Source: Candidatus Woesearchaeota archaeon (GTDB lineage Archaea > Nanobdellota > Nanobdellia > Woesearchaeales > B29-G15). Taken from it: a DNA stretch of 64,000 nucleotides. Both the position numbers and the translations under genes were made by a program. Of this stretch, positions 4,001 through 54,485 are shown piece after piece. The notes under the pieces were generated by a model. That model saw nothing but the letters and a program-made list of their open reading frames with translations. It was not told where the DNA came from and ran no database searches. Each line of letters starts with the position of its first letter. The stretch's first letter is position 1. Location: contig JAFCCU010000002.1 in the NCBI GenBank assembly GCA_017610005.1, positions 18,118 to 82,117 on the forward strand, read 5' to 3'.

Positions 4001-4058
4001 TAACTGTTTGATCGCAAGTTTTATATATTTGTATAGTAAAATAGTGTCTGAGGGAAAA

Positions 4059-5507
4059 ATGTCAAAAAAGGTGTTTTTAGTATTACTAATACTGCTATGT
4101 GCTAGTTTTACATATGCAGAAGAATCATTAGATGTTCAAATTGAATTGATTGCAAATGACTTTTCACTTGTACAAGGCACTAATCAATTTGCAGAGTATG
4201 GGATAAAACTTACTAATCCTTATTCTTATGAAGATACCTTTGAATTTCGTGTAAAAGATTTTTCTTGGAATATTTGGACTAATCCCTTATCTGATTATGT
4301 TGGAGGGGGAGTGGATGTTCAACCAGGCGAAACTTATGAAGTCCAGCTTTTTATCGCCCCCACAGGAACTAAAAATATTGGAAGATATTCTATTCCTTTA
4401 ACAATCACAACAAGGTCTAATGGGGAAAAAATCCAAAAGAATCTTGTTGTAGATATTGTTTCAGGAGTCCCAACAATAAAAGAATATGAATTGGGGATTT
4501 TAGTTAATGTTGATCTACCTTCAGTTATCGATCCCCGTGGTAAAACCACCCTGGTTGTTGATGTAGAAAATGTATTTCCTCGAAATATTACTAACATAAA
4601 GTTAGAATTGATTTCAGAATTAATCAGGGGCAGGTCAAACTTTTCACTTGGAAGACTGGGTGAAGAAACATTAGAGTTTCCAATCGAATTAAATGATTAC
4701 CAAAGCCCTCTTCAAGACAAACTTGAATTAAGATTCTCTAAAGATGATGAAGTCTTTAAATCCGTTAAGGTGAATTATGCTGTTTTAAGTTACTCGATTG
4801 TAAATACTGTTTCTGATGAAACCTATGGCAAATTTTTAAAATCAACAAGAGTAATTGAAGTTCATAATGATGGAAATATCGCAAAAAGTCATCAGATTAG
4901 AATACCTTTAAAATTTGGAAGTGGAATTTTTACCAGGACAGATCCAAAAAACTATCTTGTAAAAGATGAAGAAGGCACATTTATGGTTTGGGATTTAAAT
5001 CTTGATAGTCAAGCCAAGTCAACAGTCACAATTAATCAAAATTATCAAGTATTATTTTGGTTTGGCGTTGTTATTATTTTGATAGGATTATTTTATTGGT
5101 TTATGCGTTCACCTGTGTTAATTGCAAAAGAGGCAAAAGTAGTTGAGATTAGAGATGGTGCAGTATCACAGTTGAAGGTATTGCTTCATTTAAGAAATAG
5201 AACTAACAAACCAATTACGGCAATTAAAATTGCAGATCGTGTCCCAGATATTGCACAAATTCTAGAAGAGTTTGACGTTGGTACAATTAGACCTGAAAAA
5301 ATTGTTAGAGACTCCAAAGGAGGTACTTTAATTAAATGGTCCATTTTGAAGCTTGATCCATATGAAGAACGAATTATCAGCTATAAATTAAGATCCAAAC
5401 TTCAAGTTCTTGGAAGCTTTGTCTTGCCTAGCGCCCTTGTTAAATTCAAGAGCCCCGGCGGTAGCAATCTAAAGTCTAAGAGTAAAATGGGGAAAATTAA
5501 TCAGTAA
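4059..5507 (+). CDS. Membrane protein with N-terminal signal peptide, large extracytoplasmic region, one internal TM helix and a C-terminal cytoplasmic domain
   Basis: The ORF-track ORF starts at 3921 but overlaps the aCPSF1 3' end. The in-frame ATG at 4059 (MSKKVFLVLLILLCASFTYA) gives a signal peptide. TM segment VLFWFGVVIILIGLFYWFM. Confidence 0.6.
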   Translation: MSKKVFLVLLILLCASFTYAEESLDVQIELIANDFSLVQGTNQFAEYGIKLTNPYSYEDTFEFRVKDFSWNIWTNPLSDYVGGGVDVQPGETYEVQLFIAPTGTKNIGRYSIPLTITTRSNGEKIQKNLVVDIVSGVPTIKEYELGILVNVDLPSVIDPRGKTTLVVDVENVFPRNITNIKLELISELIRGRSNFSLGRLGEETLEFPIELNDYQSPLQDKLELRFSKDDEVFKSVKVNYAVLSYSIVNTVSDETYGKFLKSTRVIEVHNDGNIAKSHQIRIPLKFGSGIFTRTDPKNYLVKDEEGTFMVWDLNLDSQAKSTVTINQNYQVLFWFGVVIILIGLFYWFMRSPVLIAKEAKVVEIRDGAVSQLKVLLHLRNRTNKPITAIKIADRVPDIAQILEEFDVGTIRPEKIVRDSKGGTLIKWSILKLDPYEERIISYKLRSKLQVLGSFVLPSALVKFKSPGGSNLKSKSKMGKINQ

Positions 5508-5526
5508 GAAGTCTGGAGTCTAAAGG
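5502..5526. repeat. Octamer repeat family element
   Basis: cagtaagaagtctggagtctaaagg overlapping and following the stop of the 4059..5507 gene. Confidence 0.4.
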
Positions 5527-5739
5527 GTATGGCTCAAAATTCAGGGGGGTTTGTAGTATTCAGTTTTTTAAATTTCTTTAGAGGGTTGTTAATTTTTTTG
5601 AAGATGTCATAATTGGGCCTGATTTAGAAAAACTCCAAAAAAGATTGTAAAAAATTAAAAAAATTAATTAAGGATGGCATAATACTTATTAATGAGAGAA
5701 CCCATTATGGATGATAAGTGCATAATAAAAATAAATTAA

Positions 5740-7551
5740 ATGGGTGAGATTATTAGGCAAAGATCTTGGTTAACAATTATTGTATCAATTTTGTTATTAT
5801 CTGTTCTTCTTTATTTGATTATGTTAAATGGCTATAAAGATAACAGAATTGCAGATGCAAAAGTAATATTCTGTGAGGTGATTTTAACACCTGCAACTGA
5901 AAGAGTGTGCGAAGTTGTAACAGGAAGTAATTCTTTGCTCATAAAAGGGAATGTGCTTGACCCAGATATAATTTATCATGGGGGAGAAGTTCTTGTTGAT
6001 GAAACTGGGTTAATTAGGTATGTTGGATGTAGTGAAAACAGACCAGAAGAGCTAGATGCTATCGCATTAGGGGCAACAAAAATTGAATGTGCAGAAGGTG
6101 TTGTTTCTCCAGGGCTTATTAATTCCCATGATCATTTGAATTATAATAATTACCCCTTAGCTGAAACTGGCAAGCGATATGACCATCGCAATGATTGGAG
6201 GTCAAGTTTATCTCCTTTCCCCTATAATTCTTCTCAAGAGAAAGTAACTTGGGCAGAGATGAGACAAACAATGGTGGGCACCACTTCTATTGTAGGCTCT
6301 GGGAATACATTTGGTTTTGTTCGTAACCTTGATTCTGAAAATGAACACTGGGAGATCGTTAACCAAACTGAAATAGTCTCAGATACATTCCCTCTTGAAT
6401 CTCCTGAAGATTATATTCAAAATGATAGGGAATGTTCCCTTTACTCCAAAAAGAATAGATTGAATCCTTATCCTGGGGTTTATGTGCCCCATGTTGCAGA
6501 AGGGGTTAATGAGGCCGCTCATAATGAATTTATTTGTTTAAGTAAGGAAATTGAGAGGAATTTCGCAATTGTTCATGGAATTGCTTTAGATGCTTATGAT
6601 GGAAAACTCATTGCAGAAAGGGGAGCTTCAATAATTTGGTCACCTAGGTCCAACGTAGCCCTGTATGGCAATACTGCCCCGGTTAAAATGCTAAAAAATC
6701 AAGGGGTATTAATTTCATTAAGCACCGATTGGACTCCCACTGGTTCAATGAACCTTGGGCGGGAACTTTTGTGTGCAGATGAATTGAATAAAAAATATTT
6801 TGGCAATATATTTAATGATAGGGAATTGTGGTTAATGGTTACTTATAATCCTGCGGTAGCATTACAAATTGATGATAAACTTGGATCATTAAAACCAGGC
6901 CTTTTTGGAGATATTGTAATTTATGATGGGAGGGGAAAAGATAATCCTTACCGTGCAGTTATAGAAGCGAATGTAAAAAGCACAGTTCTTGTTCTACAAA
7001 GATCATTATTTTCTCAAGGAAATTCTGTGTATGCTGGGAGTATTGCACTTTATGGGGATTCAGAAATATTAAAGGCATTGCCAGAACATGAGATTCAGGC
7101 GCCCCGTTTTGGATTTAGCAAACCCCTTTGCGAGCTAATTTCTGTTTGTGGTGTTGAAAAGACAATATGCCCCGTAAGGGAAACTTGGTGGACTATTTTA
7201 GAAGGTCATACTCCTCTTTCTATGGATGATTTATACAAAAAGAACCAAGATTCTTATCCTTTGTTCTTTTGTGGGGAACCCATTGATGAACCTACATGTA
7301 CTCCTTTTAGGTCAGGAGAATACACTGGAATTATTGCTAATAATGATCTTGATGGAGATGGGATACTTAATATTAATGATAACTGCAAAAATATCTTTAA
7401 TCCCATAAAACTAATGGATGGTAACATCCAACCAGATGCAGATAATGATGGAATTGGAGATGCGTGTGATAGATGCCCATTGGATGCAGGCAAAATGTGT
7501 AATTCATTTAATCCCTACACAAAAGAGATAATTAATATCTTTGATGGATAA
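5740..7551 (+). CDS. Membrane-anchored amidohydrolase-superfamily protein with C-terminal thrombospondin type-3-like Ca-binding repeats
   Basis: N-terminal TM (LTIIVSILLLSVLLYLIMLNG). Metal-binding HxH motif GLINSHDHLNYNNYP typical of amidohydrolases. C-terminal DxDxDGxxDxxDNC repeats (NNDLDGDGILNINDNC, DADNDGIGDACDRCPLD). Confidence 0.7.
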   Translation: MGEIIRQRSWLTIIVSILLLSVLLYLIMLNGYKDNRIADAKVIFCEVILTPATERVCEVVTGSNSLLIKGNVLDPDIIYHGGEVLVDETGLIRYVGCSENRPEELDAIALGATKIECAEGVVSPGLINSHDHLNYNNYPLAETGKRYDHRNDWRSSLSPFPYNSSQEKVTWAEMRQTMVGTTSIVGSGNTFGFVRNLDSENEHWEIVNQTEIVSDTFPLESPEDYIQNDRECSLYSKKNRLNPYPGVYVPHVAEGVNEAAHNEFICLSKEIERNFAIVHGIALDAYDGKLIAERGASIIWSPRSNVALYGNTAPVKMLKNQGVLISLSTDWTPTGSMNLGRELLCADELNKKYFGNIFNDRELWLMVTYNPAVALQIDDKLGSLKPGLFGDIVIYDGRGKDNPYRAVIEANVKSTVLVLQRSLFSQGNSVYAGSIALYGDSEILKALPEHEIQAPRFGFSKPLCELISVCGVEKTICPVRETWWTILEGHTPLSMDDLYKKNQDSYPLFFCGEPIDEPTCTPFRSGEYTGIIANNDLDGDGILNINDNCKNIFNPIKLMDGNIQPDADNDGIGDACDRCPLDAGKMCNSFNPYTKEIINIFDG

Positions 7552-7576
7552 AATTTTTTCTTATTTCCCCCACAAT

Positions 7577-7586
7577 CTTTATAAAT
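7577..7586 (+). promoter_or_regulatory. Putative archaeal TATA box for tRNA-Tyr
   Basis: ctttataaat centred ~27 nt upstream of the tRNA 5' end, the expected archaeal spacing. Confidence 0.4.
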
Positions 7587-7609
7587 CGGGTAATTTTTCA
7601 CAGTCTAAT

Positions 7610-7733
7610 CCTCGCCTAGCTCAATGGTAGAGCGTTCGGCTGTAGATCGTTGCTCGACTGTGTTATGATAACATCGAATGATAAGCAGCCAGCCGTTACC
7701 GAAAGGTTCCTGGTTCAAGTCCGGGGGCGGGGA
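7610..7733 (+). tRNA. tRNA-Tyr (anticodon GTA) with a ~52-nt intron at the canonical 37/38 position
   Basis: Hand-folded. Acceptor CCTCGCC/GGCGGGG plus discriminator A. D-arm GCTC-AATGGTA-GAGC. Anticodon stem TTCGG/CCGAA with loop CTGTAGA. Intron ~7647-7698. T-arm CCTGG-TTCAAGT-CCGGG. Short variable loop, i.e. archaeal/eukaryal class I Tyr. Confidence 0.75.
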
Positions 7734-7793
7734 CTCATTTTCTCAGTCTGAAGATAATAGTCTGGAGTACGGAGTCTGCAGTCTGGAGTAAAT
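7704..7793 (+). repeat. Direct repeat copy 1 (tRNA-Tyr 3' third plus ~55 nt downstream)
   Basis: aggttcctggttcaagtccgggggcggggactcattttctcagtctgaagataatagtctggagtacggagtctgcag is repeated almost exactly at 7878..7957. Confidence 0.8.
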
Positions 7794-7877
7794 ATATTTC
7801 CGCCATTCTCTTTAGAGGGTTAATTCGTAGAATTTACCCGAAAGTTTGCTCCTCTGCTTTACAAAGCAGAGACTGTA

Positions 7878-7957
7878 AAGGTTCCTGGTTCAAGTCCGGG
7901 GGCGGGGACTCATTTTCTCAGTCTGAAGATAATAGTCTGGAGTACGGAGTCTGCAGT
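7878..7957 (+). repeat. Direct repeat copy 2 (duplicate of the tRNA-Tyr 3' third plus downstream sequence)
   Basis: Same ~80-nt sequence as 7704..7793. It is preceded by two strong hairpins (gggttaattc-gta-gaatttaccc and ctctgcttt-aca-aagcagag). Confidence 0.8.
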
Positions 7958-8110
7958 AAATATGTATTGAAAACTGAATTTTTCTCTCGTCTAAGCTCCC
8001 TACAGAAAGATTTATAAACAACTCCCAAATCACACAGTAGAGATGGGGCATTTTATCTTCTGAGAGCAATAACAAGTTGTTATAGTTATTAGTAGGTCAA
8101 ATGCAAACAC

Positions 8111-8248
8111 GCCCTGGTGGTGTAGTCGGACTATCATAAAGCCCTGTCGAGTTATTGGAAATGAAAATTTTCAAACACAGCAAGGCTTTGACCCGGGTTC
8201 GAATGGTTGAGTGTGAAAGCACCAACACAGAAAATCCCGGCCGGGGCG
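8111..8248 (+). tRNA. tRNA-Asp (anticodon GTC) with two introns: canonical (after the anticodon loop) and non-canonical (just after the T-loop)
   Basis: Acceptor GCCCTGG/CCGGGGC plus discriminator G. D-arm GTGTAGTCGGACTATCAT, similar to known archaeal tRNA-Asp. Anticodon stem AAGCC/GGCTT with loop CTGTCGA. Intron 1 ~8151-8183. T-stem CCGGG, loop TTCGAAT, then a 31-nt insertion (8205-8235) before the T-stem 3' strand CCCGG. Confidence 0.65.
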
Positions 8249-8264
8249 TATCCCATAATATTTT

Positions 8265-8360
8265 GGGTCGGTAGCTCAGGCTGGTAGAGCGCTTGGCTTT
8301 TAACCAAGCGGTCGCGAGTTCGAATGGTTTTAAACAACCTAGAAAATCTCGTCCGACCCA
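8265..8360 (+). tRNA. tRNA-Lys (anticodon TTT) with a 22-nt non-canonical intron just after the T-loop
   Basis: Acceptor GGGTCGG/CCGACCC plus discriminator A. D-arm GCTC-AGGCTGGTA-GAGC. Anticodon arm CTTGG-CTTTTAA-CCAAG. T-stem GCGAG, loop TTCGAAT, insertion 8326-8347, T-stem 3' CTCGT. Confidence 0.7.
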
Positions 8361-8381
8361 ATAAACGGAGTGGGCCAAAAG

Positions 8382-8618
8382 ATGGAATTTGATATAACGA
8401 AACATTCACTTACCCCCAAGCACACTAAACTTGATTCTAAAGAGGAAGAAAAGTTCTTGGAAGATACAAAATATAGAAAAGTTCACTTGCCAAAGGTCTT
8501 TTTAGAGGATCCCAGCATTCAGCATTTAAAACCTGTTGTGGGAGATATTATAAAGATTGAGAGAAAATCTCCAACGGCAGGTGTAGCTTATTTTTACAGG
8601 GTGGTCTCAGATGAGTAA
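8382..8618 (+). CDS. rpoH: DNA-directed RNA polymerase subunit H (Rpb5 homolog)
   Basis: ~78 aa with the characteristic ITKHSLTPKH ... IIKIERKSPTAG ... YFYRVV pattern. ATG at 8382; the ORF-track GTG at 8370 lies only 10 nt after tRNA-Lys. Its stop overlaps the rpoB'' start (ATGAGTAA). Confidence 0.85.
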   Translation: MEFDITKHSLTPKHTKLDSKEEEKFLEDTKYRKVHLPKVFLEDPSIQHLKPVVGDIIKIERKSPTAGVAYFYRVVSDE

Positions 8619-16286: not shown

Positions 16287-16724
16287 ATGGGAAGAAAAAC
16301 AAGTGGCTTAAATGCTGCAAAAAAATTAGTAAAAAGAAGAACAAAGGGCAGATGGATGGATATTAAGTATAAGAAAAAAACCCTTCATTTAAAAGAAAAG
16401 TCAGATCCTTTGAGAGGATCATCTCAGGCAAAAGGGATTGTTCTTGAAAAAGTACAGCTAGAAGCAAAGCAACCAAATTCTGCAATGAGAAAATGCGTCC
16501 GTGTTCAGTTAATCAAGAACGCAAAGCAAGTAACTGCATTTGCACCAGGTGATGGAGCAATTAAGTTTATTGATGAACACGATGATGTAGTCATTGAATG
16601 TATTGGCGGTAATAAGGGCGGATCCAAGGGAGATATCCCTGGAGTTAGATGGCAAGTTATCAAAGTTAACGGCCAGTCACTCGTTGGCTTAATTAGCGGC
16701 AAGATTGAAAAAGCAAGAAGGTAA
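16287..16724 (+). CDS. rps12: Ribosomal protein uS12 (S12/S23e)
   Basis: 145 aa with the conserved [13 protein letters not shown] and GGxxxDIPGVRW motifs. Confidence 0.95.
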
Positions 16725-16726
16725 GG

Positions 16727-16785
16727 CAGTCAGAAGTCAGAAGTCTGAAGTCAGAAGTCAGAAGTCTGAAGTCTGAAGTCTTCGG
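16727..16785. repeat. Tandem octamer repeat (GTCAGAAG / GTCTGAAG x ~7) immediately 3' of rps12
   Basis: ggcagtcagaagtcagaagtctgaagtcagaagtcagaagtctgaagtctgaagtcttcgg. A related unit (cttcagac) sits at 16848-16860, directly after the stop of the convergent lipid-kinase gene. Confidence 0.85.
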
Positions 16786-16858: not shown

Positions 16859-17830
16859 TCAAAATTGTTTCACAATTTTGTACGCTTTTGGGATAACTCT
16901 TACAGAATATTGAGTTTCTTGAAGTTGCCCAGATATTACATTTCCATCTGATTCAATGAAATGTCCTTCCCTCAGCTTAAACTCGATATGCTCTCCCTTG
17001 TATAATTTTGCATGTCTTGGTTCATGTTGATTAAGGCAGGTTAAGGGTGAATTTAGAATCTGACCTTTGTTCATTGCATCATAAACAACTATTCTTGCGA
17101 GTCCGTCATCAAGGGGCCCAGGAGGCGCTACCCAAATGCCTGCTCCAGGCGTGAAACCTTTTGCAATAATTAAATCAAATGCCGGTTTATTTCTTTCAAC
17201 AATCTTACCATCAACTTTCAACCATTCAATATAAATTGGTTTGTGGGGAATTAAATTCAGCAAGCCTGCTCCTACATGGGCTGGAATTCCCCTAGATTGT
17301 TTCCTTTCTTTTAATTTTTCAACCCTCTTAATATGTTCAGCAGTCCAGCCAAACCCAAGAAAGTTAAGTGAGTAAGCATCAATCCCTCCAGTTATTTCTA
17401 AAATATCTACTTCTTTTGATTTTCCTTCAACTCCTAAAAGAAATAAATCTTCAAGCGCGTTTGGCAAACCGAGAGCGAAAGCATACCCATTTCCTGTTCC
17501 TGCAGGAATCCATACAATTTCAGGCATATTTTCAAGATGATGGTGCCTTAAGTATGTAACAAAATCAAGCACAGTTCCATCCCCTCCAATCCCCCAAAGC
17601 CTTTCATGGATCCCTGGGTCAAAAAAAGGCATTTGAAACACACCATTAAGAAGCACGGTCTGAGAAATATCTGGGGTAAAGTCATGCCCCGCAGCATTGT
17701 AAACTTCAACATATTGTTCTATATCAAAAGAAATGGGTTGCTCCCGACTAAAAAAACTCCTCCTGCGCCTAACTCCTTCAGCTGCAGGATTAGTAAGTAT
17801 TAGGGCACCATTCACAAAAATGAGAAGCAA
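16859..17830 (-). CDS. DAGK-catalytic-domain family lipid kinase (YegS/BmrU-like)
   Basis: GIGGDGTVLDFV (GGDGT) and WIPAGTGNGYAF (P.GTGNDFAR-like) motifs. TTG start 16 nt downstream of the ileS stop. Confidence 0.7.
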   Translation of the reverse strand: MLLIFVNGALILTNPAAEGVRRRRSFFSREQPISFDIEQYVEVYNAAGHDFTPDISQTVLLNGVFQMPFFDPGIHERLWGIGGDGTVLDFVTYLRHHHLENMPEIVWIPAGTGNGYAFALGLPNALEDLFLLGVEGKSKEVDILEITGGIDAYSLNFLGFGWTAEHIKRVEKLKERKQSRGIPAHVGAGLLNLIPHKPIYIEWLKVDGKIVERNKPAFDLIIAKGFTPGAGIWVAPPGPLDDGLARIVVYDAMNKGQILNSPLTCLNQHEPRHAKLYKGEHIEFKLREGHFIESDGNVISGQLQETQYSVRVIPKAYKIVKQF

Positions 17831-20929: not shown

Positions 20930-21075
20930 TTTCAAAAACCACCAGTGAGTTCACTTGTGGCCTGTTGAAAATAGTGGTTTTTGATGCTCAGAATTCTACC
21001 CACAAGTGGCATTTTTGAGCACACAGATTCCACTTTGACCACCCATCTGGGGTGGAATTCTGTTGTTTTAAAGAA
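20930..21075 (-). repeat. MITE-like intergenic repeat, copy A (reverse orientation)
   Basis: Shares termini TTTAAACAACAGAATTCCACCC ... CACTGGTGGTTTTTGA and internal blocks (gaattctgagcatcaaaaaccac; tgtgctcaaaaat) with copies at 27762..27932 and 54199..54485. Confidence 0.75.
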
Positions 21076-21198
21076 ATTGGCCCCTAGTTAATTCCTATAA
21101 TCATAAAATTTCCAAAGGATTTCATATTATCAAAGAATAAGAAGTATATTTTAAAGCTTTCGTAAGATTTATTAATCTGGAGCCATTATCAAGTTAAT

Positions 21199-21546
21199 AT
21201 GAAACCTCTTGCTGCAGAATCCCTAGACCAGGGGAGATATTATAATCTAATGGCCGGCGAAGATATTGTTATGGCAAAATACATTCTTGAAAGTGGGGAA
21301 TATTTACATTTTTTAAGTGTCTCTAAATTTCCTAAAAAAAGATCTGCTGTAATTGAATATAGAGTTCCCCTCAGATATGCGAAAGTAAATTGGAGAGGAA
21401 TAATAAGTGGAGGGATTGAAAAAATAACAATTGCCATGTGGTCGCCTACAACCCCATTATCTCCATCAGACTTATCTACACAAGTCTTGGAGACAGCAAA
21501 AAGAATATCTCTGCCCAAAATGCGGGCCTTGCAATCTCTAGGTTAG
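21199..21546 (+). CDS. Hypothetical small protein (115 aa); weak call
   Basis: ATG ORF in a ~900-nt intergenic region. A 92-aa antisense ORF overlaps it, so the coding status is uncertain. Confidence 0.25.
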   Translation: MKPLAAESLDQGRYYNLMAGEDIVMAKYILESGEYLHFLSVSKFPKKRSAVIEYRVPLRYAKVNWRGIISGGIEKITIAMWSPTTPLSPSDLSTQVLETAKRISLPKMRALQSLG

Positions 21547-21623
21547 AACAAGAAGTTACAAATTATTCTGATTTATCGAACACTTTATACCCTAGACTAT
21601 ATACTCTAGACTATTATTATGGG

Positions 21624-21768
21624 GTGTAAGGTTTAGGAGATAATATTTTTCACTCCAGACTCCAGACCCCAGACCCCGTACTCCAGATTGTTGTAGGGTA
21701 TAAGGTATAAGGTTTAGGAGATATTATTTTTCACTTCTGACTTTAGACTTCAAACTTCAGACTGATAG
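21624..21768. repeat. Tandem ~70-nt duplication upstream of the first surface-protein gene
   Basis: Two copies of ggtataaggtttaggagataatatttttcact-C/T-c-A/T-gact... Each ends in octamer-family units (ccagactccagacc / cttcagact). Confidence 0.7.
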
Positions 21769-21772
21769 AATA

Positions 21773-21782
21773 CTTTAAATAT
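21773..21782 (+). promoter_or_regulatory. Putative TATA box for surface-protein gene A
   Basis: ctttaaatat ~35 nt upstream of the ATG at 21814. Confidence 0.3.
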
Positions 21783-21813
21783 AAGTTAACCAGAAATAAC
21801 CCTTGTGATCACC

Positions 21814-23841
21814 ATGATAAAAAAGAGCTGGTTAATTTTCTTAGTAGCACTGCTACTTACATCAACAATAGTTACTGCAGGAGATTATTTATTTCCTGGC
21901 GCTTTTGAAGATAATTCTTTTTGGATCGTTTCAATTGAGAGAGATGATGCAATCCTCCCATGCCTTGGGATGATTGAGATTGGATCTGATGCAATTTTGG
22001 TTTCTCCAGAAGGAGAAGAACATCCTACTGAGATTATTTATGGGCCTCATTTCTTTTCTGAAACCTTTATGAATCGGTGGAGAATTGGTGCTGCAGGATT
22101 AAAATTACCTGAAGAACTATTGGGAGAAGGATGGCAACTTAAGTTAACTTGTGAAACCGAAACAGTAAATTGTGTTGACCAATTGTTTTACAGAGATGAT
22201 GATGGGGTTGAAGAAGAAAAATTACCTGGTTTTGCTTATGGTATTTATGAAGATGAACTACAAAGGGTTGATAATATTTGTGAAGATGATATTGTAACTC
22301 AAGCAGTTTGTAGTGATGACAACATAAGTGTTGAGATAGTAAATCTTGAATGCCCAGCAGGTTGCGCTGGGGCTCACTGTGCTCCTGTATTTGTATGCAT
22401 TGATTCAGATATTGATGAAGAAGATTTTACTGTTATTGCTGGTTTTGTTAATATAACAAGGTATGATGAGGAATATAATGAAACCATTTCTATTGCAGAA
22501 TCTTTAGATGTTTGCGATACTAGGGCATTAACAGAATATTATTGTGAAGATGAAACTGCAACAGAAGCAACTTCTGTTGTAATTTACTGTGATCCTGAAT
22601 GTGCTGACGAAGGATCTTGCATGACCCCAGAAGTTGTTATTGATTGGGATAATATCTCTGGATGTTGTTTAAACAAATTAACAGAGCCTTGCAGATATTA
22701 TGATTCGGCTTTAGAGTGTTGCCCAGTAGAAGGTTATGAAGATGTTGTCGATACCTTTGCGCCTCAAAATCAAGAGGAATGTTTGGCTGACTTCTTTTTC
22801 GAATCAGATAATGCTGAAGCATGTGCAGAGATGGGTCCTGAAGATGCAGAAAATTATAGACTTTGTGAAAAAGGATGCTGTTGTGAATATACGACTGCGG
22901 CTGTTGATTGTGGGCCTGAAGAGGAAACTTGTGAATCAACATTAACGGTTACTGCGGCAAATCAATTATCTAGTGTAGCATGTGCAGTAATTGAAGGCCA
23001 CAGGGCTTACTACACATTTGAAACTATTGAAACTTGTTCAATTGAGTCTTGCTCTGAAAGATTAGGAGGAATAGCTGAAAATCAACCTCCTGTATTTGAG
23101 TTATTAGAAGGTCAAATTGATGTATGCCTTGGAGATGAAGTTAAGTTTGATGTTCAGGCAATTGACGCCGATTCAGACTTTTTAATTTATTCAACTGGAG
23201 TTTTACCTGAAGGTGCAACCTTTCAACAAAAAACAATTCCTCAATATGTTGATGAAGGTTATTCAAGTGAGGGGTATGTCTTTACGTGGACTCCAAGTGA
23301 GGTAGAATCAGTTACTCTTAACTTTTCTGTAACTGATAATCTTTATGAAGTCTCACAAGGAGTTGTAATAAATATTAGTGATTGTAATCCAGTCACAATC
23401 AGCGAATGTAAACCAATGACTCCTCCAAATAATAATACAATTTGTTTGGGAGATAAATTCTCATTTTGTTTAGGGATGGGAGAAATATCAGCAGATTCAT
23501 TGCCTGAGGGAGCAACTTTTAACCAAAATTGCTTTGAATGGGAACCAACTGAAGAAGGCCAATATACTGTAACTTTCGTAAAGGAAGATTGTGAAGAACC
23601 ATTAAATCAAGAGCTGTTTGTACAAGATTGTGATAATGGTTTGGGAGAGTGGATAAAGGGTTTATTTATTGGGGCAGGCATTGCCGCAATAATTGTAGCA
23701 ATCCTTGCTTTTATTGTATGGAAAGGGGTCCTGACGATTGTTTGGTTTGGAATTTCCCTTGCAACAGCTCCTTTGCTATTTATGTCCATATTTGTAGCAA
23801 TCGGAGCAATAGTGGGCGCACTGGTCTGGGGGCTTCTCTAA
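21814..23841 (+). CDS. Cys-rich modular surface protein A: signal peptide, CxDxDGG-type Cys repeats, GCC...GCCC signature module, two He_PIG/cadherin-like domains, C-terminal double TM anchor
   Basis: ATG at 21814 (the ORF-track GTG at 21805). MIKKSWLIFLVALLLTSTIVTA signal. Signature module ~22660-23050 (GCCLNKLTEPCRYYDSALECCPVEGYE...EACAEM...GCCCEY). LPEGATF...W(T/E)P He_PIG-like motifs. C-terminal hydrophobic helices. Confidence 0.8.
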   Translation: MIKKSWLIFLVALLLTSTIVTAGDYLFPGAFEDNSFWIVSIERDDAILPCLGMIEIGSDAILVSPEGEEHPTEIIYGPHFFSETFMNRWRIGAAGLKLPEELLGEGWQLKLTCETETVNCVDQLFYRDDDGVEEEKLPGFAYGIYEDELQRVDNICEDDIVTQAVCSDDNISVEIVNLECPAGCAGAHCAPVFVCIDSDIDEEDFTVIAGFVNITRYDEEYNETISIAESLDVCDTRALTEYYCEDETATEATSVVIYCDPECADEGSCMTPEVVIDWDNISGCCLNKLTEPCRYYDSALECCPVEGYEDVVDTFAPQNQEECLADFFFESDNAEACAEMGPEDAENYRLCEKGCCCEYTTAAVDCGPEEETCESTLTVTAANQLSSVACAVIEGHRAYYTFETIETCSIESCSERLGGIAENQPPVFELLEGQIDVCLGDEVKFDVQAIDADSDFLIYSTGVLPEGATFQQKTIPQYVDEGYSSEGYVFTWTPSEVESVTLNFSVTDNLYEVSQGVVINISDCNPVTISECKPMTPPNNNTICLGDKFSFCLGMGEISADSLPEGATFNQNCFEWEPTEEGQYTVTFVKEDCEEPLNQELFVQDCDNGLGEWIKGLFIGAGIAAIIVAILAFIVWKGVLTIVWFGISLATAPLLFMSIFVAIGAIVGALVWGLL

Positions 23842-23930
23842 CTTTTTTTTAATTAACTCCTTTATGGAGACCATTTTAATACGAAATATTTAAAAGAACA
23901 AGCTAACTTTCGTATTCTTGGTGATTATTT

Positions 23931-24362
23931 ATGGCAATTGTAGGATTTGGATTCACAAAAATACTTGTTGAGAAGAAAAAACAGTTAACCTCAAAAATTA
24001 ACATTAAAAATAATATTGCAATAAAAGATATTGTAGAACATGATTTTCATGATGCAGGAAAAGATAGGCAAGGCCTAAAATTTATATTTGAGTTTATATC
24101 AAGTTATGATCCTGGAGCAGCCGAAATAAGACTTCTTGGAGAGGTTTTTTTTATTGCTGAAACAAAGAAATCTCAAGAAATATTAAACACATGGAAGAAA
24201 GACAAGAAAGTAACAAAAGAAGTTATGCCAATTGTCTTAAACTATGCTCTGTCAAGATCTAATGTTATGGCAATTTCATTATCAAAAGATGCTGGACTTC
24301 CACCTCCTTTGCCCATGCCAAGGGTAAACAATGAAAAGGCCGATAACTCTTATATTGGCTAA
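23931..24362 (+). CDS. Hypothetical cytoplasmic protein (143 aa) between surface-protein genes A and B
   Basis: ATG ORF with no signal peptide and no motif recognised. Confidence 0.4.
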   Translation: MAIVGFGFTKILVEKKKQLTSKINIKNNIAIKDIVEHDFHDAGKDRQGLKFIFEFISSYDPGAAEIRLLGEVFFIAETKKSQEILNTWKKDKKVTKEVMPIVLNYALSRSNVMAISLSKDAGLPPPLPMPRVNNEKADNSYIG

Positions 24363-24397
24363 AAGTTTATATATTTGTTATTCAATTTTTTATCTTA

Positions 24398-26581
24398 ATG
24401 ATTAGATATACTGCTTTCTTCATAGCATTTTTATTAGCAGTGTCAATTGCTTCGGCAGCTTGCACTGATACAGATAATGGTAAAACTTACTATGAACTGG
24501 GTAATTGCCAGGCCCCAAATGGATACCCTGGTGATGATGAATGCTGGGACTGGCAAATTGTTAGAGAAAAATTCTGTCAAGATGACGAATCCTGCTGGTT
24601 TTATGATCACCCCTGTAGATATGAATGTGAAGATGGGGCTTGTATTCCTAATCCTAACGAATATTTGATTCCTGTAGGATATGATGGCAAGTGGTACGGC
24701 GCAAGATATCCAAGTAAAAATGACAATATCCCACCTTGCCTTGCATCAGTTAATGAGGGAGATTCAATCAACCTTGTAACAGCAGAATGGCTGGAATTTC
24801 CTGCAAGGGTAGAAGAGGCGCCTCATTCATTTAGGGAGCATATGAATGATTTCCAGATTGTTATTACTGATAATTCAGTTTCAGAGGGACAAAGGCAAGG
24901 GTTAATATTTTCCGCAAGTTTAATTTGTGAAGATGATAGGATGCAATGTATTGATCAGGCAACAAAGGTTAATACTAATAGATACCCAGATGATGGTGAC
25001 TGGATGCCAGGCTTCGCATTTGGAAATTTTTCAGATGAAATTGTGAGAAAAAATAATTATTGTATTGATGATGAGAACTTAACAATATACACATGTGCTG
25101 ATAAATACAATATTCAAAATGTAACAGTTGTATGTGAAAATGGATGCAGTAATGGTCATTGTAAACCTAGATACTTCTGCGAGGATTTTGATGAAGGTCT
25201 TGATCTAAGAACCCCCTCATATGTGGAGATTACAATTGAGCTCGATGGAGAAGAGGATTTTGTTAGAGTATATGAAGATTATTGCAACGGGGATAAAAAA
25301 ATAACAGAGAGAACTTGCAATAGAGATGGAACCTACAAATCAAATATTGAATCATGCTCTTGTGAGGAAGAAGACTGCTGCGATGAAGGAGCATGTGTCA
25401 GTGGGGGGAGCATTAGTGATGTTCCAACAACAATAATCCCTCAAGACCCTGCAGGAACTGAAGATTCTGGATGTTGTTTAAACCCAAATAGGGAAGCATG
25501 CGCCTATTACGACCGGGCGGAAAATTGCTGCTTGGAATGGGAAGATGAATATTTAGTGGAGGGGGGCCCAGTTGATCAGGCAGATTGCCTTGCAAATTAC
25601 TTTTTTGTCTATGAGACAGATGATGCTTGTGCAGTAATGGGAGAAGCATACAATTCATTTGCAAATTATGAGATGTGTTCTTATGGGTGTTGTTGTGTCA
25701 AGGGCCCCATGGGAGATGAAGACTATGTTTATACTGCAACAATTGAAAGAGGGGCTCTTTGTATGGAAACAGATGATAAAATGTGGAGTCCTTTAGCAGA
25801 CATAATTAATTGCGATGAAGCAACTTGTAGGGGGATTATTGCAAATGGTGGGAGCATCAGTGATATTCCCACTATTGCTGACCCTATTATTGATGACCCA
25901 ATTATACCCTCCTCTACTGAACCAATCGAAGATGAAGTTTGCGCTAACGAGGAATTTAAATTATGTTTAGATACTATTGATCCCTTGGGGGGATTTTATC
26001 ACTTCCAAGCAACCTCTGTTCCTTCAGGGGTTGTATTTCATCAAGATCAAGGTTGTATTGTTTGGACTCCAATAATGGAGAATTTGGGTTGGAATATAAT
26101 GAAATTTCAAGACACTGAAAAGGGCAAGGAGGCCCAGATGGGAATAAATGTTTTGTCTTGCTGTCCTGAATTTGTTGAATTACCAAATCAAGAGTCTTGC
26201 ATTAACCAAAATTTAGAATTTTGTTTAGAGGCAGAACCCAATAATGGGAATTTAATCTTTTCAGCAACAACTTACCCTACTGGTGCTACTTTCACTCCCC
26301 TATCGGCTTGCTTTTTATGGAAACCAGAAAAAGAAGGACATTACACAGCTGATTTTTCAGTGTCCAACGGAGAATGTGGAGATCAAATGCAGGTTTCAAT
26401 TTATGCTGGCTCTTGTGGGGCAGAAATCAGCAGCGAGGATGGAGGAATTGATTGGGGACAAATGTGGGTGGGGATAGGTTTAGCGGTGTTGGGTATACTT
26501 GCAATAGCTTTAAGCTGGATTGCTTTCCCAGTATTTTTCGTTATAGAAGCAATTGCAATTGCAATTATGGTATTTTCATAA
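24398..26581 (+). CDS. Cys-rich modular surface protein B (closest paralog of A)
   Basis: Signal MIRYTAFFIAFLLAVSIASA. Signature module ~25469-25840 (GCCLNPNREACAYYDRAENCCLEWEDEY...DACAVM...GCCCVKG). Two He_PIG-like motifs (VPSGVVFHQDQGCIVWTP; YPTGATFTPLSACFLWKP). C-terminal TM. Confidence 0.8.
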   Translation: MIRYTAFFIAFLLAVSIASAACTDTDNGKTYYELGNCQAPNGYPGDDECWDWQIVREKFCQDDESCWFYDHPCRYECEDGACIPNPNEYLIPVGYDGKWYGARYPSKNDNIPPCLASVNEGDSINLVTAEWLEFPARVEEAPHSFREHMNDFQIVITDNSVSEGQRQGLIFSASLICEDDRMQCIDQATKVNTNRYPDDGDWMPGFAFGNFSDEIVRKNNYCIDDENLTIYTCADKYNIQNVTVVCENGCSNGHCKPRYFCEDFDEGLDLRTPSYVEITIELDGEEDFVRVYEDYCNGDKKITERTCNRDGTYKSNIESCSCEEEDCCDEGACVSGGSISDVPTTIIPQDPAGTEDSGCCLNPNREACAYYDRAENCCLEWEDEYLVEGGPVDQADCLANYFFVYETDDACAVMGEAYNSFANYEMCSYGCCCVKGPMGDEDYVYTATIERGALCMETDDKMWSPLADIINCDEATCRGIIANGGSISDIPTIADPIIDDPIIPSSTEPIEDEVCANEEFKLCLDTIDPLGGFYHFQATSVPSGVVFHQDQGCIVWTPIMENLGWNIMKFQDTEKGKEAQMGINVLSCCPEFVELPNQESCINQNLEFCLEAEPNNGNLIFSATTYPTGATFTPLSACFLWKPEKEGHYTADFSVSNGECGDQMQVSIYAGSCGAEISSEDGGIDWGQMWVGIGLAVLGILAIALSWIAFPVFFVIEAIAIAIMVFS

Positions 26582-26606
26582 TTTTTTAACATTAAATTTT
26601 GTAAAC

Positions 26607-27684
26607 ATGAAAAAAGTAATTCTCTTGCTAATTTTTCTTTTAAACATTTACACAGTCTCAGCAGGATGCTGCATCAATCCAAATAGCTACGCTTGTTAGA
26701 TAGTTGATACTCAATGTTGCCCAACAGATGGAGAATACTCTTCTCCTTTTGGCCCCTCTGGACCAAATGACTATAAGACTTATTGGTTTTATGATTCAAC
26801 ACATCCAGAAGCATGCGCAATAATGGGGCTTGAGTCAAGCCCAAATTACCAATTATGTGAATTTGGATGTTGCTGTGAGCTAATGCCAGAGGGGATAACG
26901 AATGGAAAGCCTATGGCCCAGGCAGCTTGCATGGATAATCATCAACGTTGGCACACTTTTGATCAAATACCAGATTGTTCACCAACAAATTGCGCAGCAA
27001 AATTTAACACAAAAGCTGTTGGAGCAACAACTACTACAATAAATTTAGAAACAGCAAGAAGGAGAACTGAGGAATCAGGAGTTGAAGCAGAAGACTTCTT
27101 TGAAAGAGTGCAAGCATGTATTGGAGAACAGTTAGTGTGGTGTCACGATTGGTATATAATTGAGGAAGGTAAAATCCTCCCAGTGGGCGCAATAAGGGTG
27201 AATGATTGCTTTCATTGGACTCCTGACCAGGAAGGAGAATATCAAATAAGTTTAGGATATACGTTTGATGTGCCAAGTTATATAGAAAGAATGTTGCCAG
27301 AACCCACTTTGAATATTTCAGTGGATTACTGTGGTGATTGCTTTCTTATTGCAGAGATTGCTGATGAAAATACTGCAGAAGGGATATGATCCCTTTTATG
27401 GTTGAAGCTGCAGATGAAGAAGGGGATTTACTCACTTACTCAGCATTAAATTTACCAGAGGGCGCAATTTTCAAAACTGATATTGGATTATTTTTTTGGC
27501 AGAGCAAGGATGCAACACCCGGCATATATGAATTAGAATTTGTTGTAACAGATGGAAAATGCACTGTTTTGAGAAAGTAACTCTTGAGATTGAAGAGTGC
27601 GGCGACACATCAATAGTATCACAGATTCTTGCTATGCTTGCTATAATTTTTGGTGGGGCAACTGTTTATACAATTGCTGCATGA
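26607..27684 (+). pseudogene. Decayed paralog C of the Cys-rich surface-protein family (in-frame TAG plus at least 2 frameshifts)
   Basis: Signal peptide and GCCINPNSYAC then TAG at 26697-26699, exactly where paralogs have the conserved Tyr (C-x-Y-x-D). The frame then continues through CCPTDGEY...EACAIM...GCCCE. Frameshifts near 27386 and ~27575. The He_PIG-like and C-terminal TM remnant (ILAMLAIIFGGATVYTIAA) are in other frames. Confidence 0.75.
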
Positions 27685-27761
27685 GTTGGTTTAATTGATG
27701 CCCCAGCCCATGTAAAACAATATGGTAAATTTCTCGCTGATACAACTGGTCTTGGAACTTT

Positions 27762-27932
27762 TTTAAACAAAAGAATTCCACCCTTCTATTGAAGGGTGGT
27801 CTAGGTGGAATTCTGTGTGCTCAAAAATTACCTATGATCGGTGGAATTCTGAGCATCAAAAACCACTCAACAGCGAGCAAGCTTTTCAACATGCCACCAA
27901 TGTATTCACTGGTGGTTTTTGACAAGCAGTTG
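27762..27932 (+). repeat. MITE-like intergenic repeat, copy B
   Basis: Same family as 20930..21075 and 54199..54485. Lies between the pseudogene and surface-protein gene D. Confidence 0.75.
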
Positions 27933-27985
27933 CAATGCATTTTAATAGAAAAATTTAAATGTTAAAACCTTAAATAATAATAACA

Positions 27986-29587
27986 ATGAAGAAATTTGTA
28001 TTTGTAGTCATTCTTTTTTTACTCTTTTTAACAGCGTGTGACAAAGATACAGATGGTGATGGAATTTCTGATACTGAAGATAATTGTATTGGTATTAGAA
28101 ACTCGGATCAAATAGATTCAGATAAAGATGGCTGGGGGGATCCATGCGATTTTAATGAAGATCTAAGTGAAACACTTTTATATTTTTCCGCAACCTGGTG
28201 TACTTATTGCCATGAACAGTTACCAATTATTCGAGAACTTGATCAAGACTTTCCAGATTTAGAAATTCAATATCTTGATTTTGATGCAAGGCAAGATTTA
28301 GTTAGGGAATATGGTATTGTGGGTGTGCCTCATTATGTATTTATAAAAGGAGATTGTTGGAAAAAAACAAGAGGTACAACAAGTTATTCAGAATTAGTTA
28401 ATTGGATGGGAAAGGGTGCTTGCGCAAGATCAGCAGCAGTCCGTAGCCAAGGAGTCAATTTGCAGTCTGAAGTCATAAGTCAGAAGTCACTCAAACCCCA
28501 AACCCCAAACCCCAAACCCCAAACCTTACCAACTGGTTGTTGTATAAATCCTAATGAAAATGCGTGTGTTTATTCTGATGATATTGATAAATGTTGCCCA
28601 GTAGATGGTTATGAAGAATCAATAGGACCGCAATCACAAGCTGAATGTAAAGAACATTGGTTCTTTCCCCACGCAACAGAAGAAGCATGCAGCGTAATGG
28701 ATCCATTAACTTATGAAAATGCACAATATTGTGAATTTGGGTGCTGTTGCGAGGCTACCCCCATAGGTATAGCTGCATTTGCCTCAGAAAAAATCAAGTG
28801 TAATGATTATTGGGGAAGTTATGAAGAATTAAATTGCACGGTAAATGATTGTTCTAAATTTATTGAAGGGGGGGCAACATTAAAGACTGCTTCTCGTGTT
28901 TCTCCAATGGCAACAATCTCAGTTACTCAAACAGAAGATGAAACTTGCGTTGATGAATTGTATATTTTTTGTACAGTAAATCCTTTAGCTACTGAGATAT
29001 CAAATTTACCTGCTGGCGCAATAATTACTAACAACTGCATTGAATTCACCCCCACTGAAGCCCGTAGTTATTCAATTACGTTTAGAGAGGGAGATTATTA
29101 TTCAGAGGTACTAAACTTAGAGGTAATAGACTGCTCTGATCCGCCAGTTTTAGGATTCTTGCGAAATCGGAATGTATACAAAAATCAGATATTTAGTATT
29201 AGGGTACGTGCTACTGGGACAGGAGATTTGACATATGTAGTAGAGGATATGCCTGATGATGCCAAATTCAATCCAAAAAAATTAAAATTTTCTTGGATTC
29301 CAAGAGAGGAGAACGTTGGCAAACAATATAATGTTAAATTTATTGTGATAGATTCAAATGGGAGAACTGATGAAAAAACAGTTGAACTTAATGTTAGAAA
29401 TTATTCTTTCATGTGGATAGCTGGTTTGTCATTGGCCCTTGCAGGTTTACTTTACTTAGGTGCATTATTTTCCGGATTGCTTGAATCTCTAACATGGTTT
29501 TCCTCTTCTGCATGGATATATGTTGCAGGGGCTTGTATTGCGATATCCTTTATTCTGGTCGCGCTTTATTTTCTTTCGGGATTATGA
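27986..29587 (+). CDS. Cys-rich modular surface protein D with thrombospondin type-3 repeats and a thioredoxin-like CxxC domain
   Basis: Lipobox-like signal (FLLFLTAC). TSP3 repeats DKDTDGDGISDTEDNC / DSDKDGWGDPCD. Trx-fold motif LLYFSATWCTYCHEQ...GVPHYVFI. Pro/Thr linker encoded by repeats. Signature module ~28535-28860 (GCCINPNENACVYSDDIDKCCPVDGYE...EACSVM...GCCCEA). He_PIG-like LPAGAIITNNCIEFTPT. C-terminal TMs. Confidence 0.8.
   Translation: MKKFVFVVILFLLFLTACDKDTDGDGISDTEDNCIGIRNSDQIDSDKDGWGDPCDFNEDLSETLLYFSATWCTYCHEQLPIIRELDQDFPDLEIQYLDFDARQDLVREYGIVGVPHYVFIKGDCWKKTRGTTSYSELVNWMGKGACARSAAVRSQGVNLQSEVISQKSLKPQTPNPKPQTLPTGCCINPNENACVYSDDIDKCCPVDGYEESIGPQSQAECKEHWFFPHATEEACSVMDPLTYENAQYCEFGCCCEATPIGIAAFASEKIKCNDYWGSYEELNCTVNDCSKFIEGGATLKTASRVSPMATISVTQTEDETCVDELYIFCTVNPLATEISNLPAGAIITNNCIEFTPTEARSYSITFREGDYYSEVLNLEVIDCSDPPVLGFLRNRNVYKNQIFSIRVRATGTGDLTYVVEDMPDDAKFNPKKLKFSWIPREENVGKQYNVKFIVIDSNGRTDEKTVELNVRNYSFMWIAGLSLALAGLLYLGALFSGLLESLTWFSSSAWIYVAGACIAISFILVALYFLSGL
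28461..28527. repeat. In-frame simple-sequence tract inside gene D: octamer-family units followed by (AAACCCC) x 4.7
   Basis: cagtctgaagtcataagtcagaagtcac then aaacccc x4 plus aaacc (28493-28525). It encodes QSEVISQKSLKPQTPNPKPQT. Confidence 0.85.
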
Positions 29588-37624: not shown

Positions 37625-37781
37625 GAATATCCTATTGCTTACAGTGGATGGGTGAACATGAGCTACATAAAAATGGGGATTACTAACATTAAAAATACTC
37701 AGAAATGCCCTCATTTCTGGTACCAGAAACCCTGTTTCTTTGTACCCCTCAACTTGTTGAGGTTGGGATTTTTACTTAGTT

Positions 37782-40220: not shown

Positions 40221-40297
40221 TTTAGAATATCTCTCTCTATTAAATTGATTTATATAGAAGAATAAGGTAGTCAGAATCAATTTATAAGGTTTGCCAT

Positions 40298-46095: not shown

Positions 46096-46097
46096 CT

Positions 46098-54198: not shown

Positions 54199-54485
54199 TT
54201 TAAACAACAGAATTCCACCCATCTCATGGAAATGCAAAGCATTTCTAGGACAACAGAAATCGAGATTTCTATTTGTAATGATAGGTGGTAAATGTGGAAT
54301 CTGTTTGCTCAAATGCTTAAAAATCAAAGATTTTTAGCACTCTGAGAAGCAAAGCTTTTCAGTTGAACCACCAAACAGCGAGCAAGCTTTTCAACATGCC
54401 ACCAGTGTCTTTGAAATTGTAACAATTTCTAAGGCACAAAAAACACAAAGTGTTTTTTCGTGTATTCACTGGTGGTTTTTGACAG
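54199..54485 (+). repeat. MITE-like intergenic repeat, copy C (longest copy)
   Basis: Termini tttaaacaacagaattccaccc ... cactggtggtttttgaca. Shares the ccaccaaacagcgagcaagcttttcaacatgccacca core with copy B. ORF-track ORFs 54127..54327 and the N-terminal part of 54460.. lie inside it and are probably not coding. Confidence 0.75.

Follow-up and report, generated by a model that had tools for sequence, protein, structure and literature searches.

The window, by which we mean the whole 64,000-nucleotide stretch of DNA that was analysed, has a GC content of 35.5% and the gene content of an ordinary archaeal chromosome of the housekeeping type. Its synthetase genes encode IleRS, CysRS, ProRS and one enzyme of ValRS/LeuRS type, two families that Pfam cannot separate, and they are accompanied by genes for RNA polymerase subunits, ribosomal protein S12, NusA, a proteasome subunit, FttA, an ABCE1-like ATPase, sugar-nucleotide enzymes and an array of secreted TSP3/He_PIG proteins. 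At gathering thresholds, Rfam matches a single feature of the window, a tRNA with a 55-nt intron. The closest named relatives of the IleRS belong to Woesearchaeota and Nanoarchaeota, with 68% identity for the best non-identical match, and the host is a Woesearchaeota/Nanoarchaeota-type (DPANN) archaeon.

Three complete copies of a repeat, here called A, B and C, are dispersed among these genes (Table 1). The original prediction had placed three intergenic copies at these sites from their termini and internal blocks; the copies are indeed present, with their ends refined to 21072, 27924 and 54484, the quoted termini and blocks proved correct on direct reading and alignment, and the intergenic location of all three was borne out. 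Each copy lies upstream of a co-oriented gene, at 32, 60 and 150 nt from the start codon for A, B and C, respectively. Copy A, in the orientation of the IleRS gene that it precedes, sits between divergent genes, copy B is upstream of a thioredoxin/TSP3 surface-protein gene starting at 27986, and copy C is found between a MazE-like gene (-) and a 117-aa ORF (+). The GC content of copies A and B reaches 41%, versus 32-33% in their flanks, and CCACC/GGTGG boxes occur six to eight times per copy.

The copies end sharply, at TTTAAACA... on the 5′ side and ...CACTGGTGGTTTTTGACA on the 3′ side, and they have in common a 5′ end of the form TTTAAACA-A(A/C)AGAATTCCACCC and a 3′ end of the form (C/T)TCACTGGTGGTTTTTGA(C/A)A, in addition to the internal blocks. 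The 17-mer TCACTGGTGGTTTTTGA has exactly three matches in the window, one per copy, where 0.27 would be expected by chance even with three mismatches, while the 5′ box AGAATTCCACCC, with one mismatch at most, has seven matches against an expected 0.36, six of them inside the copies. The covariance model used for scoring was built from family members other than the window copies. It recovered copy C in two parts (23.5 and 17 bits), a low and split score due to the inserts that interrupt this copy. Away from the copies, the best match to the model attained 16.2 bits (E 0.07), and neither a profile search nor an unfiltered covariance-model search of the window yielded a fourth copy; therefore, the window holds exactly three. 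Short ORFs overlap copies B and C (27789-27965, 54127-54327, 54179-54337 and 54359-54502), and since they are spread over both strands on hairpin DNA, they were judged by eye to be probably spurious.

Table 1. Positions of the three repeat copies and of their structural parts in the window (copy A on the - strand, copies B and C on the + strand)
Feature	Copy A (-)	Copy B (+)	Copy C (+)	Evidence or remark
Whole element	20930..21072 (complete, 143 nt)	27762..27924 (complete, 163 nt)	54199..54484 (complete, ~285 nt, six additional inserted hairpins)	Covariance model 109.6 bits (A) and 129.8 bits (B); folding z -6.2 and covariance model (C)
5′ edge motif TTTAAACA	21064-21072	27762..27769	54199-54206	Consensus of 14 complete copies
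Helix P1, 5′ arm AAGAATTCCACC	21052-21062	27771..27782	54208-54218
Helix P1, 3′ arm GGTGGAATTCTGT	21024-21033	27804..27816	54294-54303
Second P1 3′ arm	20989-20999	27840-27852
H1, 5′-proximal palindrome CCACCCTTC-TATT-GAAGGGTGG	21039-21055	27778..27799	54215-54223 and 54280-54288 (arms)
Helix P2, 5′ arm TCAAAAACCAC	20974-20984	27856..27866	54366-54373
Helix P2, 3′ arm GTGGTTTTTGA	20932-20942	27912..27922	54470-54477	Followed by CA, the 3′ edge
P3, 3′-proximal palindrome GCCACCAATG-TATT-CACTGGTGGT	20938-20961	27893..27916	54398-54407 and 54467-54476 (arms)	Followed by T5
H1-loop insert			54228..54270 (54228-54245; 54255-54270)	Two small hairpins
Inter-domain insert			54318..54360 (54318-54336; 54344-54360)	Two small hairpins
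P3-loop insert			54413..54462 (54413-54429; 54435-54462)	Two small hairpins

Comparison with relatives resolved the scaffold common to the copies into two fold-back domains that lie side by side. Helix P1, formed by the 5′ box CAGAATTCCACC and GGTGGAATTCTG, closes domain I, and helix P2, formed by TCAAAAACCAC and GTGGTTTTTGA, closes domain II. Domain I contains H1 (CCACCC..GGGTGG), located 10-12 nt from the 5′ edge, and domain II contains P3 (GCCACCAGTG..CACTGGTGGT), separated from the 3′ edge by 8 nt and immediately followed by T5, so that H1 and P3 are similar CCACC...GGTGG palindromes on the same strand, each near one end of the element. The P1 3′ arm is duplicated in copies A and B, and P2 and P3 are partly mutually exclusive pairings around the T5 run. 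Small A/T-rich hairpins in the loops are gained and lost between members, and it is the addition of such hairpins to the scaffold that produces the variation in internal length already remarked in the original prediction. Two of the hairpins of copy C have counterparts outside the window, that at 54318-54336 recurring at the same position in three loci (L118, L105 and L119) and that at 54435-54462 being common to two others (L099 and L106).

At the 5′ edge, the consensus consists of a T-rich stretch followed by TTTAAACA, whereas at the 3′ edge ...TTTTTGA is followed by C in 19 of 21 sequences and by A in all 21, after which the bases are random. The conserved edge motifs are TTTAAACA at the 5′ and TTTTGACA at the 3′ end, although some of their bases may belong to the flank. 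The 5′ motif could be a target motif of the TAM kind or a TATA-like box. The 5′ edge TTTAAACA/TTTATACA agrees with the TATA-box consensus of archaea, and a hairpin followed by T5 forms the 3′ end, features that together would suit a free-standing small-RNA gene and speak against the PATE-type reading discussed below.

Copies outside the window were sought with one exact 17-mer from the 3′ end, a choice that favours close relatives and copies intact at that end. In a scan covering one genome per species it matched 71 loci, approximately the number expected by chance, five of which contain a whole element (L028, L045, L053, L064 and L071), and the scan of metagenome contigs gave 105 loci, 13 of which are real members. 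Whether the repeat extends beyond the window, a point left for checking by the original prediction, can thus be answered with about 18 further loci in public MAGs and metagenomes, whose flanks are unrelated and whose elements range from 44 to 480 nt. The covariance model also retrieved members without the 17-mer. A second copy in L152 comprises domain I alone and lies tail to tail with the first one; L106 has, at 936-1057, a very divergent two-domain member (P1 AAAAATTCG/CGAATTTTT, P2 CCTAAAAACTCGC/GCGAGTTTTTAGG); and in L064 the model indicated an additional, weaker candidate copy. No family member was recovered from viral contigs searched with three patterns or from plasmid and phage collections searched by blastn.

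All five MAG loci are titled 'uncultured Methanosarcinales archaeon'. In L064, the nearest named relatives of the proteins are from Nanoarchaeota/Woesearchaeota and the intron-bearing tRNA is 76% identical to that of the window; therefore, the title is probably wrong for this locus, and spread across phyla is not claimed. tRNA genes abut the element in three loci (L028, L045 and L064). Over all loci, and according to rough ORF maps, the element is co-oriented with the downstream gene in about 11 cases and convergent in about 6, and beyond the element the downstream genes have retained TTTAAATA-type promoters of their own. A description of this family was not found in the literature on repeats and non-coding RNAs of DPANN/Woesearchaeota; the family appears to be new, and its general kind is already known.

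The genomic position of the element is not conserved, since the flanks differ between all copies and no synteny is kept among relatives. Three relatives for which DNA was available have 102-168 nt upstream of IleRS and lack copy A there, whereas the corresponding region of the window measures 301 nt, of which 143 are copy A; in a fourth relative, represented by its gene table only, the intergenic region of 135 nt is too short to hold it. No family member was present in the 38 kb of DNA from these relatives. The IleRS of the nearest relatives are only 61-68% identical, the orthologous intergenic DNA is not alignable, and no pair of filled and empty sites at nucleotide resolution was found among the loci compared. 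An IleRS riboswitch or 5′ leader was rejected in view of the unrelated neighbours, the mixed orientation and the absence from the IleRS orthologues.

Altered forms of the element are common, and some copies are found at rearrangement points. A single 72-nt hairpin insert distinguishes two copies of one MAG (L053 and L071), and six loci (L105, L119, L155, L173, L134 and L165) share 155-180 nt at 88-97% identity in different flanks, with L105 and L165 having a common 5′ flank and distinct 3′ flanks. Truncated forms include two members reduced to their 3′ parts (L173 and L134) and a 44-nt version consisting of the ends only, with the 5′ box joined directly to the 3′ end (L094). Two pairs of contigs (L099/L106 and L118/L122) have their first bases within the repeat and part precisely where it ends on the 3′ side, a pattern expected of assemblies broken by a multi-copy repeat. 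In the window itself, the 13-kb block from IleRS to RpoB is inverted relative to L258, with copy A at one breakpoint, and 6.7 kb of surface-protein genes lie between copies A and B, which are inverted relative to each other; on the P0003 contig, this segment is missing between IleRS and CysRS/thioredoxin. The original prediction had allowed for a recombination hotspot, and the association with rearrangement points holds.

It was verified that the three copies fold much better than shuffled sequences, with z values of -3.75 (A), -4.88 (B) and -6.23 (C), and that their opposite strands fold about as well. In hand-aligned arms from 12 distinct members, P1 is 90.8% paired and 12 of its 13 pairs have changed on both sides, values that none of 500 shuffles reached, and H1 is 93.4% paired with four covarying pairs. 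P3 is 92.6% paired, which carries little information because its 3′ arm was fixed by the way in which copies were retrieved. In a model-based alignment of 17 matches, 93.4% of the cells are paired and 20 of 24 pairs have changed on both sides (equalled by 0 of 500 shuffles), in comparison with 34-57% paired in slid controls. These figures should be read considering that the hand alignments were made with pairing in view, that the model alignment favours its own structure and that several sequences are close relatives. The compensatory changes in P1 and P2 are kept even in the very divergent member of L106. On the evidence of the alignments, these counts show the inverted complementarity of P1 and P2 to be under selection; the covariation would fit a folded RNA, hairpins of single-stranded DNA or co-evolving inverted half-sites for a protein alike. 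Long-range helices such as P1 and P2 are no known requirement of IS200/IS605 ends, and their strong conservation is more suggestive of selection on a folded RNA, a further point against the PATE-type reading.

The active strand was also sought in the wobble pairs. The departures of G.U and A.C type in P3 (9 versus about 5) equal the expectation from base composition alone, so that the wobble counts reveal no strand bias beyond composition and, given composition and the ascertainment of the 3′ arm, are uninformative on strand assignment. A simple bacterial-type terminator scan, which flagged H1 on the opposite strand and left P3 unflagged, was equally uninformative. Rfam 15 has no match to the family, either in the window at gathering thresholds or in copies B and C under permissive settings, where the best sub-threshold match attained 25 bits against a gathering score of 208. 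Readings as tRNA, tmRNA, C/D-box, H/ACA, SRP or RNase P RNA were dropped by eye, as no conserved boxes are common to all copies. A replication origin with ORB-like boxes, an integron attC site and a DGR template were discarded on the grounds of three copies in 64 kb and of the wrong sizes, and Orc/Cdc6, IntI and reverse transcriptase are all absent nearby.

Different readings of the family have to be weighed. The defining features of MITEs are terminal inverted repeats and target-site duplications. The repeat was originally described as a MITE-like non-autonomous element, and much of this description stands, as it is a short, non-coding, multi-copy and intergenic repeat with defined ends, copies elsewhere and no transposase nearby: Pfam detected no transposase of any type in 40 window ORFs, as had been predicted, and about 20 ORFs beside the outside copies, read by eye, included none that looked like one. 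The MITE label itself fared worse. A classical MITE would be a deletion derivative of a cut-and-paste IS, with a DDE transposase binding inverted subterminal CCACC boxes, and a rough two-fold symmetry of the whole element and an inverted match of 7/12 positions, CCACC included, between the 5′ box CAGAATTCCACC and the 3′ end, which reads TCAAAAACCACC in reverse complement, are in its favour. However, no inverted repeat is formed by the real termini, TTTAAACA... and ...TTTTTGACA, the proposed check for target-site duplications came out negative in 14 complete copies under six boundary definitions, in which the only letters shared were an invariant CA, and the search for a full-length IS with matching ends found none in the window or in any fetched locus, which represent a small part of each genome. 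This origin is considered very unlikely. The layout is nearer to that of PATEs, which are transposase-less haloarchaeal relatives of IS200/IS605 (IS1341-type) elements (Dyall-Smith et al. 2011, PMC3119063).

The main rival of a PATE-type element is a reading that takes the copies as multi-copy genes for a structured small non-coding RNA of two hairpin domains, transcribed from its own or a nearby promoter and ending at the hairpin followed by T5, or as an omega-RNA-like scaffold borne by a mobile element and acting in trans. This reading is rather unlikely, and it is kept alive by the strong P1/P2 covariation and by edges resembling an archaeal TATA box and an oligo-T terminator; folding far above that of shuffled sequences, variation in length confined to the loops, as in structured RNAs, the raised GC content of copies A and B and the report that PATEs often encode omega RNAs (PMC10055086) are also compatible with it. 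However, Rfam has no match, the nearly equal folding of both strands and a P3 wobble ratio explained by composition provide no strand or RNA signature, and no conserved promoter lies at a fixed upstream distance. With TTTAAACA as the TATA box, the transcript would begin about 22 nt inside the element and omit the covarying P1 5′ arm, and internal T5-T6 runs would end archaeal transcription early. The idea that the shared blocks could be parts of a structured RNA gene, named in the original prediction as the outcome that would count against it, was thus half borne out: the blocks are arms of a covarying structure, but the copies are non-syntenic, absent from the orthologous IleRS site and commonly truncated, reduced to one domain or to the ends only. 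A cis-acting role, as an operator array, a 5′ leader or attenuator, or an insulator or terminator for the neighbours, would agree with the upstream, co-oriented placement of the three window copies within 150 nt of a start codon, with the terminator/antiterminator-like alternation of P2 and P3 around T5 and with the binding-site-like repetition of the CCACC/GGTGG boxes. This role is nevertheless highly improbable, considering that orientation is mixed across loci, that the neighbouring genes are functionally unrelated and retain promoters of their own downstream of the element, that the IleRS genes of relatives do without it, and that a terminator would have no function at copy A, whose neighbouring genes diverge.

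Since its layout matches the published description of PATEs, the family is regarded, tentatively and at somewhat below an even chance, as a non-autonomous, hairpin-ended mobile repeat of PATE-type layout that would be moved in trans. Membership in the PATEs is unproven, because no matching transposase was found in the small parts of the host genomes that were covered. Mobility, a single-stranded-DNA mechanism and the link to a transposase are what we infer in the following model. A transposase encoded elsewhere would move the element as single-stranded DNA, recognising the two near-terminal hairpins as the IS200/IS605 TnpA does in peel-and-paste transposition; insertion would take place adjoining a TTTAAACA-like motif, without duplication of the target, and recombination and rearrangement would then act on the dispersed copies. 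In IS200/IS605 elements, the adjacent (TAM) motif resembles the end (TEM) motif, and subterminal DNA 'guides' read both (PMC10055086). In the present family, the left motif and the 5 nt before H1 appear to vary together (TTTAA/GAATT, TTTAT/GAATA and TAAAA/ATTTT), which represents one or two events with flexible spacing and may be a hint of guide-like covariation. The mobile-element and small-RNA readings are compatible, and both could be true if the element carries an omega-RNA-like scaffold. In a bolder form, considered unlikely, the two-domain fold would itself be the functional product, with trans-acting structured RNAs carried on, or derived from, a mobile element of genome-reduced DPANN archaea, for instance the RNA component of an unknown ribonucleoprotein or an omega-RNA-type guide scaffold for a nuclease encoded at another locus; RNA function would then account for the conservation of P1 and P2, with the small hairpins as expansion segments.

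Repeats are expected to be scarce in the very small genomes of DPANN archaea. A dispersed structured repeat that breaks assemblies, is found at an inversion breakpoint and brackets a lineage-specific surface-protein segment would visibly drive genome plasticity, and it would be a practical marker of mis-assembly in these MAGs. If a matching TnpA/TnpB were found, hairpin-ended single-strand transposition, possibly with RNA-guided homing, would extend to Woesearchaeota; if the element were transcribed as a discrete RNA, it would represent a new archaeal RNA family with unusually clear covariation. Under either reading, the covariance model built here is a direct means to annotate the family. The finding of the family is modest and not surprising, its interest being in the plasticity of tiny archaeal genomes and in a possible transposon-borne RNA.

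Among known systems, the Sulfolobus SM elements, which are archaeal MITEs, are likewise small non-autonomous repeats of archaeal intergenic DNA. They have target duplications and terminal inverted repeats matching known IS, whereas both features were looked for in the present family and not found. The BOX repeats of Streptococcus pneumoniae, Correia/NEMIS and REP/BIME are bacterial intergenic repeats, modular and multi-copy, that form hairpins and combine conserved end modules with internal modules in varying number; they are often adjacent to promoters and are associated with rearrangements. Terminal inverted repeats and a TA duplication characterise the Correia elements, and the REPs are linked to RAYT transposases. 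The family resembles them as a modular hairpin repeat with conserved ends, although they are bacterial and unrelated in sequence.

The ends of IS200/IS605 elements (IS608, ISDra2, ISGst; Meers et al. 2023, PMC10055086) have, as in this family, subterminal hairpins on one strand and no target duplication; the counterparts of their similar TAM and TEM motifs would be TTTAAACA and TTTTGACA in the family. Additionally, the right-end region of the family is highly structured, as the scaffold of a TnpB omega RNA would be. In contrast, a transposase or nuclease gene is absent from the family, which has no Rfam match. The PATEs differ from it in their haloarchaeal hosts, the family belonging to a small-genome DPANN archaeon and having no sequence similarity to the PATEs described. 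The family also has long-range covarying helices, P1 and P2, around its palindromes, and no IS200/IS605 element, tnpA or tnpB with matching ends occurs in the window or in 22 related loci. In other respects, the two are closely alike. Both are archaeal, short and non-coding, and PATEs are described as devoid of terminal inverted repeats and target duplications, with similar palindromes near both termini (PMC3119063), a layout that the family shares in its one-strand palindromes, which are about 93% paired. PATEs also have a short 5′-junction motif and a conserved terminal oligonucleotide (PMC3119063), and the family has conserved motifs that may correspond to both, the latter at the 3′ end. 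Finally, core deletions leave terminal-only versions of PATEs and other small repeats are inserted in their palindromes (PMC3119063), just as the 44-nt L094 version retains only the ends of the family element, small repeats are nested in its palindromes and its copies are heterogeneous except at the ends.

The gene order on one side of element copy A was compared with the relatives' DNA (L258, L257 and L179) and proved to be rearranged. Relative to the proteasome-FttA genes, and by comparison with L258, the segment 8611-20897, which runs from RpoB, RpoA, NusA, S12 and DAGK to IleRS, was found inverted, with copy A located at one of the two breakpoints. The other breakpoint region, 3967-8611, contains two extra ORFs together with a duplicated tRNA 3' half. 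This tRNA gene carries an intron and was missed by ARAGORN run in bacterial mode; the duplication consists of an 81-nt exact repeat (7702-7782 and 7877-7957, the second copy lying 175 nt downstream) comprising the 3' part of the tRNA and 50 nt of trailer. The repeat could have arisen by tandem duplication, could be an att-like duplication, or could belong to a second tRNA whose 5' half differs.

On the other side of copy A, copies A (minus strand) and B (plus strand) form inverted repeats with 74.5% identity across 165 nt, and the 6.7 kb enclosed between them (21073-27763) encodes secreted He_PIG-type proteins and proteins of unknown function. The P0003 contig, also from a relative, has no such surface-protein segment where IleRS adjoins a 147-aa gene, CysRS and a thioredoxin gene. 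The 6.7-kb segment may be an insertion specific to the lineage, or it may be invertible.

Features located in the window and in other element-bearing loci
Feature	Locus	Coordinates	Strand	Remark
Short ORFs overlapping copies B and C	window	27789-27965, 54127-54327, 54179-54337, 54359-54502	both	
N-terminal ORF extension over copy C	window	54460-54633		upstream part of ORF 54460-54987
Heptad repeats	window	3966-4005, 7741-7791, 7916-7952, 16724-16781, 21659-21767, 28453-28489, 40297-40358, 46367-46437		
tRNA gene, anticodon GUN	window	7610-7733		55-nt intron; found by Rfam
Flanking repeat	L173	about 780-870 and 560-625	minus-strand reading	
841-aa ORF	L028	2-2524	minus	

The ORFs overlapping copies B and C, as well as the N-terminal extension over copy C, pass through hairpin DNA, and the true gene downstream of copy C most likely begins at ATG 54634 (MTDIVITLGSGKG...). 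Small hairpins in the style of those nested inside the element also stand free in the window, at 16860-16880 and 37700-37760; one of them, CAAAATTGTTTCACAATTTTG, shares its core with a hairpin within the element copy of the metagenome locus L118, and three others, including CAGAAATGCCCTCATTTCTG, are found between convergent genes. Since hairpins of this style also occur outside the element, the nested hairpins may constitute a separate genome-wide class of mini-palindromes.

Two further kinds of repeat were observed in the window. A second intergenic family, unrelated in sequence to the element of copies A, B and C, repeats the heptads AGTCAGA/AGTCTGA, or the complementary heptads, in runs on both strands, mostly directly past the 3' ends of genes, and may correspond to a terminator or to another small repeat. 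In addition, two neighbouring paralogous genes of about 600 aa each, the second of which matches Peptidase_M49, are each preceded by a stretch of about 150 nt (43981-44127 and 46097-46248), and the two stretches are 87.5% identical; this looks like a tandem gene duplication that extended into the promoter region and the end of the small ORF before it.

Among the other element-bearing loci, the truncated copy in the metagenome locus L173 has a similar 20-nt sequence on each side, GGATAGGTGTTCAACTATAT and GGATGGGTGTTCAACTATGG, both belonging to a larger inverted repeat, TTGAACACC...GGTGTTCAA. This inverted repeat may be a different repeat that served as the insertion site of the element. The genome records of L028, L045, L053, L064 and L071 bear the title 'uncultured Methanosarcinales archaeon'. 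The best named relatives of the L064 proteins are Nanoarchaeota/Woesearchaeota, and the L064 tRNA, with two introns, is 76% identical to that of the window. The binchicken MAGs behind these five loci look either taxonomically mislabelled or mixed as bins. Finally, judged by eye from its translation, the long L028 ORF resembles the catalytic subunit of an A-type ATPase with an interrupting intein-like insert.
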